Source: Burkholderiales bacterium (GTDB lineage: Bacteria > Pseudomonadota > Gammaproteobacteria > Burkholderiales > WYBJ01). Taken from it: DNA of 64,000 nt. Below, piece by piece: positions 58,821 to 62,039 of the stretch (within the stretch, counting starts at the first letter, position 1; every line of letters starts with the position of its first letter). The notes under the pieces are model-generated. The model did not search any database and was not told the origin of the DNA. It saw nothing but the letters and a program-made list of their open reading frames with translations. The position numbers and the translations under genes were made by a program. Location of the stretch: NCBI GenBank assembly GCA_022841915.1, contig JALHQN010000002.1, forward strand, positions 338,724 to 402,723, written 5' to 3'.

Positions 58821-59405
58821 ATGGAATGGATCTTCCTGGCGGCTGTCGTGGCCGTGGCCGGTTACGGCATCGTCATCTACAACGGCCTGGTCGCCTTGCG
58901 CAATCGGGTCAAGAACGCTTTTTCGCAGATCGACGTGCAGTTGCAGCGTCGCTACGACCTGATTCCGAATCTGGTCGAGACCGCCAAGGGTTACCTGGCG
59001 CACGAGCGCGGAACGCTCGAAGCCGTGATCGCGGCACGCAACCAGGCGCAAGCCGCTGCGGGACGCGCGAGCGCTGGCGCAGCAGGCGCCATCGGGGAGT
59101 TGGCCGGGGCCGAGGCCGCGCTGGGCGGCTTGCTGACACGCTTCTTCGCCCTTGCGGAGGCCTATCCCGACCTGAAGGCCAATCAGAACATGGCGCAGTT
59201 GCAGGAGGAACTTGCCAGCACCGAGAACCGAGTCGCCTTCGCGCGCCAGGCGTACAACGACGCGGTCATGGGCTACAACACCAAGCGGGAGCAATTCCCC
59301 GATTCGGTCGTTGCCAATACCTTCAACTTCGCGGCTGCCGAACAGTGGCAATTGGAGAGCGCGCAAGCGCGCACCGCGCCGAAGGTGAGCTTCGGCCAGT
59401 CCTGA
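58821..59405 (+). CDS. LemA family protein
   Basis: N-terminal TM segment followed by YNGLVALRNRVKNAFSQIDVQLQRRYDLIPNLVETAKGY, the LemA consensus. GGAGAGG ribosome-binding site. Confidence 0.9.
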   Translation: MEWIFLAAVVAVAGYGIVIYNGLVALRNRVKNAFSQIDVQLQRRYDLIPNLVETAKGYLAHERGTLEAVIAARNQAQAAAGRASAGAAGAIGELAGAEAALGGLLTRFFALAEAYPDLKANQNMAQLQEELASTENRVAFARQAYNDAVMGYNTKREQFPDSVVANTFNFAAAEQWQLESAQARTAPKVSFGQS

Positions 59406-59420
59406 TCGAGATCGGGCACG

Positions 59421-62039
59421 ATGGACTTCTTCGCAGCGCAGGACCGCGCGCGACGCGCGAGCCGCTGGCTGTTGCTGTGGTTTTTCCTGGTGGTGGCGGC
59501 CACCATCATGCTGGTCTATCTGGTCATCGCGCCGCCACTGGCCGGCCAAGGCGCCAGCCTCTGGCGGCCGGGGTTGTTCTTTCTCGTTGCCTTCAGCGTC
59601 GGCGGCGTGATCCTCGGCGGTTCAGCCTGGAAGGTGGCTGAGCTCGCCGCTGGCGGGGGTGCGGCGGTCGCCCATTCGTTGGGGGGGCGGCTTGCGACGC
59701 GCACGAGCGCCGACCCCGCGGAGCGGCGCTTGCTCAATCTCGTCGACGAGATGGCCCTGGCCGCCGGAATTCCGGCTCCGCCGGTGTACGTGCTCGAGAA
59801 CGAAAGCGGCATCAATGCCTTCGCCGCCGGCGCCCGAGCGCAGGAAGCCGTCGTCGCCTTCACCCGAGGCGCACTGGAGAAACTCACGCGCGATGAGATG
59901 CAAGGCGTGGTCGCGCACGAGTTCAGCCACATCCTCAACGGCGACATGCGCCTCAATCTGCGGCTCATGGGCGTTCTGCACGGCCTTTTCATGCTCGCTA
60001 CCGCCGGGCGGCTCCTGCTCAGAAGCGGCGGCGGTCGGTCGTCGGGCAGGAACCGAGGCGGCCTGGTCGCGCTGGGTGTTGCGCTGATCGTCGCGGGCTA
60101 CGTCGGCGTGCTGGCCGGACGGTTGCTACGCGCCGCCGTCTCGCGTCAGCGGGAGTTCTTGGCCGATGCATCGGCTGTGCAGTTCACCCGCAATCCAGCG
60201 GCCGTGGCCGGCGCCTTGCGCAAGATCGCGGGAGAAGGCGCCGGGCTCGTCCATGCGCGCGCCGATGAGGTGAGCCACATGCTGTTCGATGCCGGGCGCA
60301 GCTTCGCGGGCTGGTTCGCCACGCATCCGCCGTTGCCCGAACGCATCCGTCGCATCGAAGGTGGCGTGGGGTTCGTCGCCGTGCCGCCGACCATCGCGCC
60401 GTTGCCCGGTCTTGCGGCGGTCGCGAATGAAACGCTCGCGACAGCCTTTGCTGTCACGCCACCGGTCGCGATCCCAGCCCCGCAGGCCTATGCGCAGCGT
60501 ATCGGGGCACTGGCCGCCGAACAGGTCGAGGCCGCGCGCGACCTGATCGAAACCTTGCCGGACAATCTGCGTCGTGCCGTGTCCACGCCGTCCGGCGCGT
60601 GTGCGGTCGTTCTCGCGCTGCTGCTCTCGCGAAATGCCGAACAGCGGGCCGATCAGCTTGCCGCTGTGGCGCGTCGCTACGACGAGGTATTCGCACGGCA
60701 GGTCGCCGCAGCCATCGCAGACGACCTGGCGCCGAGCTTGCGCCTGCCGCTGATCGAACTCGCGCTCGGCGCGCTGCGCGAAATGCAGGCCCACGCGCGC
60801 GATGACTTCCTCGCCGCCGGCGATGCGATGGCGCGCGCGGATGGGCGCGTGAGCCTCGGCGAGTACGTCCTGCTGCGCCTGCTGCGAGACGCGCTGGTGC
60901 CGCGAATACCGTCTCCCATGCGACTCATCCCCGGCGAACTGGCCGCGCATGGCGCGCTGGTGCTGTCGCTCGTTGCCCATGCGGGGCACCGTGATTCGGA
61001 CGCAGCCGCCGCGGCTTTCGGACCAGGCGCGAGCCGTGCGCCTACCGACGGCTTGACGCTGCTGCCGCGCGCCGAGATGCGCACCGAGGCGCTCGACCGG
61101 GCATTGGACAACCTGTCATGCGCCGCCCCCGGTTACCGCCGCCGCCTGGTCGAAGCGCTCGCTGCCGTCGCCTGGCACGATGACCGCCTCGGTTCTGCCG
61201 AGGCTGAACTGCTCGCGGCCGTCTGCAGTGCGCTCGATTGTCCCGTGCCCCTGCCGCCGGTGCCCGATGTCCGCGCAAGAACCGGCGCAGCTGCGAGTGC
61301 AGACGGCTCGCCTGCGGCGGCAGTCGGTCTCACGGCGTCGCCGCGAACGCCGGAGGTCGCGCTGGCGAGCGCAGATCGGCTGCCGGTCCAGGCGCTGGTG
61401 GCTGCCAACCTGATTCCCGTGATCGGCGTGTTCTTCTTCGACTGGGATGCCCTGACCTTGTTGTTGACCTACTGGCTGGAGAACCTCGTGGTCGGCGCCT
61501 TCACCTATGCGCGCATGGCGCGCGTCGGCGGTTGGACCACCCTGTTCTCGCCCGGCCTGTTCTTCCTGTTCCACTATGGCTTCTTCTGCGCCGGCCACGG
61601 CATGGTGCTCATGGGCATCGGCGCGATGACCGGCTTGTCGGTCGACCTCGCTGCCTACGTCGGCGACGTGGAATGGCCCGGGCCATTCGTCATTTTTCAG
61701 GAACTCACCGGTATCCTGCTGTGGATCGCGAACGAGCGCCCGGAGATGCTGCTGGCGCTGGTCGGATTTTTCGCCAGCCACGGCGTGTCCACTCTCGTCC
61801 ATAACTTCATCGGCGACGAGGACCGAGGACGCGAGGTCAAGCAGATCATGTTCGATCCCTACCGGCGCATCCTCGTCCTGCATGTCGCGATGATCGCCGG
61901 CATGTTCGTCGTGATCCTGTCCGGCGGGGCCAGCATCGTGCCTGTGCTGCTGCTCATGGTGGCGGGCAAGATCGCCTTGGACCTGCATCTGCACCGCCGG
62001 GCGCATCGGTCGCGATTGTTGCAGACCGCGGGTGCGTGA
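59421..62039 (+). CDS. M48-family zinc metallopeptidase fused to TerB-like repeats and a C-terminal polytopic (DUF6498-like) membrane domain
   Basis: H166-E-F-S-H170 (HExxH) and REFLADASA (third ligand region), with flanking TM helices. Middle segments such as [15 protein letters not shown] and [17 protein letters not shown] are TerB-like. The last 219 aa (from nt 61380) are multi-TM ([30 protein letters not shown]...). Confidence 0.8.
   Translation: [872 protein letters not shown]

Follow-up and report, generated by a model that had tools for sequence, protein, structure and literature searches.

We describe an intact two-gene unit in which lemA is followed by a single gene for an 872-aa protein that joins a HtpX-like M48 zinc protease, a tandem TerB-like middle region and a DUF6498 membrane domain. 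The unit lies in a window of 64,000 nucleotides from a Burkholderiales bacterium, the whole stretch of DNA analysed here. Judged from its sequence, the large protein belongs to the HtpX-type zinc proteases of the inner membrane, has its catalytic residues intact and is predicted to be active; its M48/TerB-like/DUF6498 fusion is rare and uncharacterised. Three widespread groups meet in the unit: LemA, the LemA-linked M48-TerB-like proteases, which count thousands of clusters, and DUF6498. For none of them did we find a paper that assigns a function. The fusion gives DUF6498 its first functional context and lets a vague DUF be framed as something that can be tested.

Features of the unit, in window coordinates:

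58821..59405, + strand: lemA, a 194-aa ORF starting with ATG (PF04011, E 3e-56)
59406..59420, + strand: intergenic stretch of 15 nt separating lemA from the protease gene
59421..62039, + strand: gene for the HtpX-like M48 protease with tandem TerB-like middle region and DUF6498, a single 872-aa ORF starting with ATG
59472..59645, + strand: N-terminal TM helix pair, about residues 18-75 by hydropathy (AF2 helices 2-41 and 50-86)
59721..60359, + strand: M48 zinc metalloprotease domain, HtpX-like, residues 101-313 (PF01435, E 8.6e-33)
59916..59930, + strand: HEFSH zinc-binding/catalytic motif, residues 166-170, invariant in 18 sequences
60153..60155, + strand: E245, the presumed third zinc ligand, in an invariant stretch of 10 residues
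60363..60515, + strand: linker 1, variable and disordered, residues 315-365 (pLDDT <50; indel-rich, unconserved columns)
60516..60920, + strand: TerB-like repeat 1, residues 366-500, with a motif of 12 residues (helices at pLDDT 80-92)
60921..61256, + strand: TerB-like repeat 2, residues 501-612, with a motif of 14 residues, ending in LDCPxP
61257..61367, + strand: linker 2, variable, disordered and Ala/Pro-rich, residues 613-649 (pLDDT <50 at 614-643; variable columns)
61368..62024, + strand: DUF6498 seven-helix membrane domain, residues 650-868 (PF20108, E 1.2e-52)

Integrity of the lemA-protease unit

The ORF list confirmed the layout given in the preliminary description, with lemA ending 15 nt ahead of the 872-aa ORF, and a spacer of this length is consistent with co-transcription. 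No promoter-like sites were found in 58400-62500, and no terminator-like sites between lemA and the protease gene. The N-terminus MDFFA is kept across homologues of the 872-aa protein, which fixes the start codon of its ORF. Pfam, AF2 and homologue alignments bear out the four parts that had been read in this one polypeptide, and the very small domain E-values put the signal well beyond chance. There is practically no chance that a frameshift or misassembly merged two genes, or that the ORF is a long non-coding one. Long spurious ORFs do arise in GC-rich DNA, many of them are seen in the window, and one relative (L005) carries a truly frameshifted, N-terminally truncated copy of the M48-type gene without LemA. 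However, 17 homologues at 49-95% identity, some from complete Thauera genomes, align colinearly and at full length with the 872-aa protein, whose exact match is present in four independent assemblies and on an NCBI contig of 482 kb, and all three domains score strongly in a single frame (Pfam). The colinear homologues and independent assemblies thus refute the suspicion that the ORF is really two genes.

In the window, the unit is flanked by genes for an acyl-CoA ligase, glyoxalase-type proteins and an acyl-CoA dehydrogenase. No regulator gene or obvious substrate gene adjoins it there, and no other ter genes lie near it. Membership of a defence system by way of TerB was rejected, since PADLOC defence-protein models matched neither LemA nor the 872-aa protein.

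An HtpX-like protease paired with LemA

The protease part matches Peptidase_M48 (PF01435) at 114.2 bits against a cut-off of 20.3. HEFSH is present at the residues where it had first been read, and H166, E167, H170 and E245 are invariant in 18 aligned sequences; by its position and from knowledge of HtpX and M48 proteases, E245 is presumed to be the third zinc ligand. Of the two TM helices first described, the N-terminal pair stands, but hydropathy and AF2 give four hydrophobic helices in the protease part, the second pair lying after HEXXH and inside the M48 domain (residues 182-236), as in HtpX. Foldseek matched the chain to ZMPSTE24/Ste24p and to the HtpX domain 3cqb (TM 0.80, 40% identity), and the best NCBIfam matches were HtpX models, below their cut-offs (NF003425, 164.9 bits versus 355). 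On these comparisons of sequence and predicted fold, the protease part is best classed as HtpX-like and not as an HtpX orthologue. It shares with HtpX, the E. coli-type M48 heat-shock membrane protease, the HEXXH motif with a downstream Glu, the two pairs of hydrophobic helices that flank the catalytic domain and, as we infer for the 872-aa protein, a cytoplasmic active site. Unlike HtpX, the 872-aa protein extends at its C-terminus by about 560 residues, made up of the two TerB-like domains and DUF6498; it lies far under every HtpX equivalog cut-off and is paired with LemA.

The LemA protein matches PF04011 at 189.8 bits versus a cut-off of 26.2 and has one N-terminal TM helix (residues 1-19, hydropathy); its helical domain is predicted to be cytoplasmic, because Arg and Lys come after that helix. 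Homologues of this LemA, 75-86% identical, are encoded directly upstream of the protease gene at related loci. Overall, LemA adjoins the gene for M48 with the middle region at 12 of 13 distinct places examined, the window included, and the single place without it holds a decayed copy, in keeping with the earlier remark that LemA/M48 pairs are widespread. In S. pneumoniae, lemA and htpX are adjacent and co-regulated (PMC8546594). Our literature search returned no mechanistic study of LemA with HtpX or of the LemA family, and nothing relevant on LemA with M48 or TerB with M48.

The TerB-like middle region

Two TerB-like segments had been proposed for the middle region from the sequence. Both repeats are present and are classed here as TerB-like at the level of the family; in the 872-aa protein itself the TerB model (PF05099) scores 17.8-20.0 bits, below its threshold of 24.4, and the match covers only model positions 70-107, in repeat 2. 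A TerB match at E<=0.01 occurs in 15 of the 18 fused members. Six homologues exceed the threshold, mostly in repeat 2 (25.4-30.9 bits in P0036, P0042, P0109, P0012 and P0016), while in P0059 it is repeat 1 that fits, over model positions 3-112 of 118. When the two repeats were aligned with each other by hhalign, the match had an E-value of 2.6e-4 and a probability of 42%. A profile search of PDB sequences gave no template for the middle region, and M48 matches dominate a Foldseek search with the whole chain. Repeat 2 closes with the conserved LDCPxP motif, which is also where unfused proteins end.

The DUF6498 tail

The tail, at first called DUF6498-like from recall, matches PF20108 over its full length (178.7 bits versus 23.7; model positions 6-204 of 207). 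It is indeed multi-TM, with seven helices, and starts near residue 650 (nt 61368) rather than at nt 61380. Its AF2 model consists of seven long helices at a pLDDT of 92.8 and a pTM of 0.85. The polar residues N663, E687, H718, H726, K850 and D854 are invariant, S786, H787, S790, H821, H858 and H862 are nearly invariant across the DUF6498 family, and the invariant His/Asp/Glu/Lys/Asn core is common to fused tails and standalone DUF6498 proteins. Foldseek found no structural match for the tail in the PDB, and DUF6498 resembled no known transporter or enzyme fold in Foldseek, PDB-sequence profile and Pfam searches. One lead, from S790xxxH794 and H858xxxH862, was a seven-TM zinc hydrolase of the CREST/PAQR/alkaline-ceramidase kind; it was abandoned, being unsupported by Foldseek of the PDB and by PDB-sequence profile searches, while a permissive Pfam scan of 26 DUF6498 members gave only scattered single matches, NnrS and MerC among them. 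We found no paper on DUF6498.

The family comprises 7,074 clusters from many phyla and is mostly standalone, 145 of 150 representatives being without the middle region and M48. At about 65 of 80 species loci of standalone DUF6498 genes, no M48 or LemA gene lies within 5 kb and the contexts are varied; no conserved neighbours of these genes were found. That most standalone genes have no M48 or LemA nearby points to an autonomous function of DUF6498, with coupling to the protease specific to a few lineages.

Distribution of the fusion and other links between the families

In its common form the protease consists of M48 and the middle region, is about 610-640 aa long and lies beside LemA, without DUF6498. 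Of at least 7,998 M48-type matches, about 17 clusters have the fusion to DUF6498, as does 1 of 150 DUF6498 representatives, so that the tail is not a common part of the family, a possibility that the preliminary description had raised against its own reading. The fused proteins form one clade, kept down to 47-50% identity, across which the tail is better conserved than the middle region (in P0012, identities of 63, 45 and 52% for M48, middle and tail). In P0013 the tail has been swapped: the DUF6498 found at this position belongs to a very distant subtype (75, 59 and 29%) and is an outgroup in the tail tree. In the nested relative P0011 the tail has been lost with no obvious replacement and with a transposase remnant alongside, which indicates that the tail is dispensable for the protease.

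Two arrangements, which we regard as the most telling, were absent from the preliminary description. In one, proteins that lack a protease combine the middle region with DUF6498 (L015, L016, L019, P0149, P0150 and P0152), so that the TerB-like region is the common element. In the other, DUF6498 is encoded as a separate gene in a LemA-DUF6498-M48 operon, in which the M48 protein has the middle region; this operon, with 4-nt overlaps, is kept in L050, L096 and L097/L098, with 62-69% identity between their DUF6498 proteins. A planctomycete has DUF6498 adjoining a convergent pair of LemA and M48 with middle region. Among about 66 standalone species loci, 2 have DUF6498 next to LemA and M48 with middle region, against about 0.2 expected by chance on our own estimate (a 10-kb span in a 4-Mb genome).

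Two further candidates were set aside. A split version, with a DUF6498 gene downstream of the unfused M48 gene, does not hold in Thauera chlorobenzoica. A protein joining HD-GYP to DUF6498 (L020) was dropped as evidence for a general sensor: it comes from a single MAG contig and lacks a TerB repeat. Its tail matches the TerB-linked tail of P0126 at 95% identity, and the protein could stem from rearrangement or, the DNA being GC-rich, from a frame error.

Taken together, the fusion, the operon and the protease-less TerB-like/DUF6498 proteins tie LemA, M48-TerB-like proteases and DUF6498 to one another, and the TerB-like region is probably the interface.

Possible roles of the fused protein

We tentatively propose that the 872-aa protein is a sensor- or partner-coupled HtpX-type protease with a TerB-like adaptor to DUF6498. 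Its N-terminus would be cytoplasmic, the protease active site, the helical domain of LemA and the TerB-like domains would all face the cytoplasm, and DUF6498 would start on the cytoplasmic side. The topology is uncertain, since seven helices with an N-in start would leave the Arg-rich C-terminus on the outer side, which conflicts with the positive-inside rule. The full-length AF2 model of the protein has a pTM of 0.52. The TerB-like pair may serve as an adaptor, both docking and transducing, for a polytopic partner in the membrane, much as TerB serves TerC; the TerC-TerB complex is a precedent for TerB working with such a protein, and the pair is tied to membrane and metal stress (PMC12054061, PMC11003894). 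The resemblance to TerB-TerC of the ter (tellurite resistance) system lies in a cytoplasmic TerB-type domain combined with a polytopic inner-membrane protein. By contrast, DUF6498 has no detectable relation to TerC, and the 872-aa protein adds a fused protease. In most lineages the partner of the TerB-like pair, if there is one, would be separate, and here DUF6498 would be that partner, tethered covalently. The buried polar core of DUF6498 might be a binding site for a metal ion or small ligand. The TerB-like domains would relay the state of DUF6498 to the HtpX-like protease and so gate or direct it, and LemA would always be present as an accessory subunit. Proteolysis of proteins in or near the membrane would thereby come under the control of a signal, possibly metal, redox or lipid. 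The earlier suggestion of an envelope-stress or regulated-proteolysis device is plausible.

A broader version, which we consider unlikely, holds that the TerB-like region and DUF6498 make up an unrecognised portable membrane module for sensing or ion binding, defining a new class of signal-gated proteases. Such a module would have a seven-helix fold of a new kind, whose histidine-rich core spans the membrane, and its link to the LemA/HtpX-like protease would come about through fusion, through insertion into the operon or possibly in trans. Were this so, LemA, M48-TerB and DUF6498 would gain a common role in metal/redox envelope homeostasis.

HtpX is a quality-control protease for membrane proteins, and DUF6498 might be an autonomous membrane enzyme or an ion or metal transporter that is fused, or placed in the operon, just to be made and located together with the LemA/HtpX-like protease, with no signalling between them. 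DUF6498 might then, for example, be monitored or degraded by the protease, or the two might serve the same pathway. If the coupling is co-localisation alone, the finding would reduce to a rare domain accretion. The overwhelmingly standalone and widespread occurrence of DUF6498 and its varied genomic contexts fit this account, as do the invariant His, Asp, Glu and Lys along several helices, which are typical of catalytic or ion-binding sites. It leaves unexplained, however, the repeated fusion of TerB-like regions to DUF6498 without a protease and the independent recruitment of different DUF6498 subtypes to the same position, and no likeness to a known transporter or enzyme fold was found; we regard it as somewhat unlikely.

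In BlaR1 and MecR1, a membrane protease of the M48/M56 type is followed by a sensor module at the C-terminal end, a layout that the 872-aa protein matches. The 872-aa protein shares with these M56 proteins a membrane zinc protease fused to a C-terminal module, for which we propose a sensing role. On a BlaR1-like scheme, a stimulus perceived by DUF6498 would trigger self-cleavage in a linker, or cleavage of a soluble regulator encoded elsewhere, and so switch gene expression; the two long disordered linkers could be cleavage sites, and weak M56 cross-matches occur. Yet the Peptidase_M56 model stays far under its threshold (9.8 bits versus 31), the sensor would be an integral membrane domain and not an extracytoplasmic, penicillin-binding one, and no BlaI/MecI-type repressor or other regulator gene adjoins in the window or at related loci. 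Such a one-component transducer is distinctly unlikely.

Less likely again, with little chance of being right, is that the tail is a neutral or near-neutral accretion, an extra membrane anchor functionally unrelated to the protease that has persisted in one clade. The restriction of the fusion to one small clade, the lost tail of P0011 beside a transposase remnant and the fact that most M48 proteins with the middle region work without it would all suit such an origin. Fused tails nevertheless keep every family-wide invariant polar residue, which argues that the tail is no passive anchor, and their conservation exceeds that of the middle region. The independent associations (operon, neighbouring gene pair and tail swap) and the estimated excess of adjoining standalone loci also stand against it.

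Relatives of the protein in Thauera

Unfused LemA and M48-TerB-like pairs are present, for example, in Thauera chlorobenzoica and T. aromatica, where the protease is named 'M48 family metallopeptidase' and has about 610 aa. Such pairs have the same protease and tandem middle region, with LemA directly upstream, and are 51-53% identical over 70% of the 872-aa query; unlike it, they stop at LDCPxP, with no DUF6498 in the protein or nearby. The preliminary description knew of no account of the four-part architecture. This architecture is rare and we found no paper on it, but it is already in RefSeq, annotated by name alone: the Thauera 'DUF6498-containing proteins' WP_277835047.1 and WP_270069501.1 (912 aa) have the same four parts with LemA upstream and belong to the same fusion clade, though they are only about 57-60% identical to the 872-aa protein. 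Thauera mechernichensis and Thauera sp. WB-2, both cultured and with complete genomes, have this same architecture.

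A lemA gene followed by a protease–DUF6498 fusion

The window carries two open reading frames on the same strand, separated by 15 nt:

58821-59405, same strand as the 872-aa ORF, lemA ORF, 194 aa
59421-62039, same strand as lemA, M48/DUF6498 fusion ORF, 872 aa

Pfam assigned the first product to LemA (E 3e-56) and, in the second, identified Peptidase_M48 at residues 101-313 (E 8.6e-33) and a near full-length DUF6498 at residues 650-868 (model positions 6-204 of 207, E 1.2e-52), the tail family that the preliminary description had named correctly. The top NCBIfam matches are HtpX models that all score far under their equivalog cut-offs; the protease is HtpX-like and no HtpX orthologue. 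Its catalytic motif is intact, with HEFSH (166-170) and E245 unchanged across 18 aligned full-length proteins. By hydropathy and in the AF2 model, one helix pair lies at the N-terminus and another, hydrophobic pair follows HEXXH, the layout of HtpX. The four-part layout first proposed, with two N-terminal helices, is borne out for M48 and DUF6498 and gains a helix pair; its TerB-like segments fall under threshold in the window protein (17.8-20.0 bits vs a Pfam cut-off of 24.4).

For these segments, the TerB assignment holds at family level, as judged from profile matches: 15 of the 18 fused proteins match PF05099 at E<=0.01, and six homologues pass the Pfam threshold, mostly via the second repeat. 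The first repeat of one homologue, P0059, matches almost the entire TerB model above threshold. The two halves of the middle region align mutually, with ADGRVS..E and HDDRLG..E in register (E 2.6e-4, probability 42%), and a sequence search detected no solved structure for this region. Unfused proteins stop just past a conserved LDCPxP, which in the window protein lies ahead of the disordered linker leading to the DUF6498 tail.

The fusion is colinear through all parts with 17 full-length homologues (49-95% identity), whose indel-rich variable stretches coincide with AF2-predicted disorder at residues 315-365 and 614-643. An identical 872-aa product with LemA upstream was assembled from four independent sequencing runs and is also present on a 482-kb NCBI contig, which together exclude a frameshift or the merger of two genes. 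One decayed relative (L005, GCA_001468985.1, LNFM01000386.1, 5583-7996) carries a frameshift near residue 530, is without residues 1-71 and LemA, and lies beside MoxR/VWA/DUF58 (Bat-like) genes; its assembly appears to hold an intact copy too, the 875-aa P0296 (LNFM01 accession).

LemA lies directly upstream at 12 of the 13 distinct places examined that encode the protease with the middle region, the window included, the exception being the decayed copy. Streptococcus pneumoniae has lemA next to htpX, and the two shift together in RNase mutants (PMC8546594). Our literature search on LemA function returned proteomic and expression lists only. Hydropathy showed a single N-terminal helix followed by Arg/Lys, from which we infer that the helical domain of LemA faces the cytoplasm, as would the protease active site and the TerB-like domains.

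The fusion is rare and forms a single clade

Among at least 7,998 relatives found with the whole protein, DUF6498 was confined to the 17 highest-ranking clusters, P0011 aside, so the tail is not a common part of the protease family. From P0019 on, the matches are 600-660 aa long with 70% query coverage, corresponding to M48 and the middle region, and include Thauera, Azoarcus and Pseudothauera proteins named 'M48 family metallopeptidase'. An exhaustive DUF6498 profile search gave 7,074 clusters at 50% identity. In 145 of the 150 best representatives DUF6498 stands alone or beside unrelated extensions; four combine it with the middle region, and one is the full fusion. DUF6498 occurs in at least 337 species with representative genomes; among 80 of their loci, the full fusion, always preceded by LemA, was found in Thauera mechernichensis, Thauera sp. 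WH-1 and two MAGs, one of Burkholderiales and one of Propionivibrio. RefSeq names the Thauera versions only 'DUF6498-containing protein' (e.g. WP_277835047.1, WP_270069501.1); the sequence type is therefore already public but uncharacterised, and our literature search found no paper mentioning DUF6498 or the LemA+M48 or TerB+M48 combination. The fusion is a rare extension, restricted by lineage, of a protease family that is common yet unstudied; it is no new kind of system.

A tree of the protease and middle region unites 17 of the 18 fused proteins in one clade, within which P0011 is nested, its tail lost; the fusion has therefore been retained across divergence down to ~50% identity. Sequence conservation across this clade is higher in the tail than in the middle region. 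P0011 is the closest tail-less relative, and a DDE transposase fragment after its protease gene suggests loss through a mobile element; an opposite-strand Fic-domain gene separates it from lemA (L006 3922-7759, also L007 and L008). The homologue P0013 shares 75% identity with the window protein in the protease, 59% in the middle region and only 29% in the tail, which falls outside every other tail in the tail tree and is a swap or second acquisition. The tail of P0018 clusters with a standalone DUF6498 protein.

DUF6498 recurs beside LemA and M48 proteases

In a gammaproteobacterial lineage, separate genes keep the order LemA, DUF6498 (1-2 copies), protease with middle region, with 4-nt coding overlaps at junctions and DUF6498 proteins 62-69% identical (L050, L096, L097/L098):

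L096 427-5629, LemA-DUF6498-protease operon
L097 3917-8155, LemA-DUF6498-protease operon
L050 4165-7555, LemA-DUF6498-protease operon

TPR and PAD_porph genes downstream are common to these operons, and in L096 DUF6498 is present as two tandem genes (666 and 430 aa) whose products have long N-terminal extensions. A Rubripirellula MAG has DUF6498 adjoining a convergent pair of LemA and a protease with the middle region.

Tandem TerB-like repeats also join DUF6498 without a protease in Rhodocyclaceae, Azoarcus and Wenzhouxiangella MAGs and in metagenomes (also P0149, P0150, P0152):

L015 3780-5696, TerB-like repeats and DUF6498
L016 4143-5672, TerB-like repeats and DUF6498
L019 4113-5645, TerB-like repeats and DUF6498

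Neither LemA nor M48 lies within 5 kb of these three loci, and this architecture is distinct from the window fusion and also undescribed. Against a shared role, the majority of standalone DUF6498 genes lie in unrelated contexts without M48 or LemA in the vicinity, so that the family must also work independently.

Other DUF6498 proteins differ in their N-terminal parts. In a Rhodocyclaceae MAG (L020 3460-5673), a single ORF places DUF6498 together with HDOD, two HD-GYP-type HD domains and a low-complexity linker. It shares 95% tail identity with P0126, a protein that has a TerB-like repeat in place of these domains; the ORF may stem from a recent rearrangement, or GC-rich DNA may have given rise to a frame artefact. 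A second recurring N-terminal extension of ~200 aa, present in a number of long DUF6498 proteins (L062 4095-5624, P0179, P0234, P0257, P0268, P0277), has no Pfam match and is unrelated to the TerB-like region; certain of its bearers also have C-terminal TPR repeats, and P0182 bears DUF3592.

A conserved tail core and the possible role of the fusion

Modelled alone from 26 diverse sequences, the tail forms seven long helices (pLDDT 92.8, pTM 0.85). Invariant or nearly so throughout the family are N663, W675, W685, E687, G692, H718, F722, H726, S786, H787, S790, P813, Y814, R816, H821, K850, D854, H858 and H862. Positions along the predicted helices would place N663, E687, H726, H787, H821, K850 and D854 close to mid-membrane, H718 and R698 nearer one face, and H794, H858 and H862 nearer the other. 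A polar core of this kind, buried and rich in His, points to a bound ion, a cofactor or a catalytic site more than to an inert anchor.

We tentatively favour a coupling model, which falls short of an even chance as a whole. DUF6498 would bind a small ligand or ion and, depending on its state, control or direct the HtpX-like protease; LemA would be a constant accessory. The TerB-like pair could serve as the interface to a polytopic partner, for which the reported TerC-TerB complex (PMC12054061, PMC11003894) offers precedent. Somewhat less probable is the main rival, in which DUF6498 works autonomously as an enzyme or transporter and is merely co-localised with, or surveyed by, a quality-control protease. 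A self-cleaving transducer like BlaR1 is improbable, because the M56 model is unmatched and no regulator gene is adjacent. Neutral accretion of the tail is more improbable still, fitting poorly with tail conservation and with the independent associations of DUF6498 with LemA/M48; an artefact is excluded. The fusion is of value as a 'Rosetta stone' joining three families of unknown function, and it singles out the TerB-like region as the part that probably does the coupling. Thauera strains in culture are at hand for tests.

Flanking genes

Around the two genes, the window contains:

55254-56129 and 56122-56946, reverse strand, tandem paralogous glyoxalase/VOC-type genes with an 8-nt overlap
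56915-58627, reverse strand, AMP-binding acyl-CoA ligase gene, after the glyoxalase/VOC-type pair
62288-63436, acyl-CoA dehydrogenase gene, downstream of the protease gene

The stretch 55254-58627 is a catabolic operon heading away from lemA, and none of the flank genes, 62288-63436 included, shows a tie to lemA or the fusion gene. Long antisense ORFs are typical of DNA with 65-70% G+C; within 55000-64000, those opposite real genes reach 643 aa (56765-58696, forward strand, and others), and ORF length alone is no gene evidence here. The closest relatives have a universal stress protein (Usp) gene immediately before lemA (L004 4487-5983, L006 3016-4500), with a Kef-type Na_H_Exchanger/TrkA_N gene beside it, an arrangement absent from the window that may hint at stress co-regulation in those genomes.
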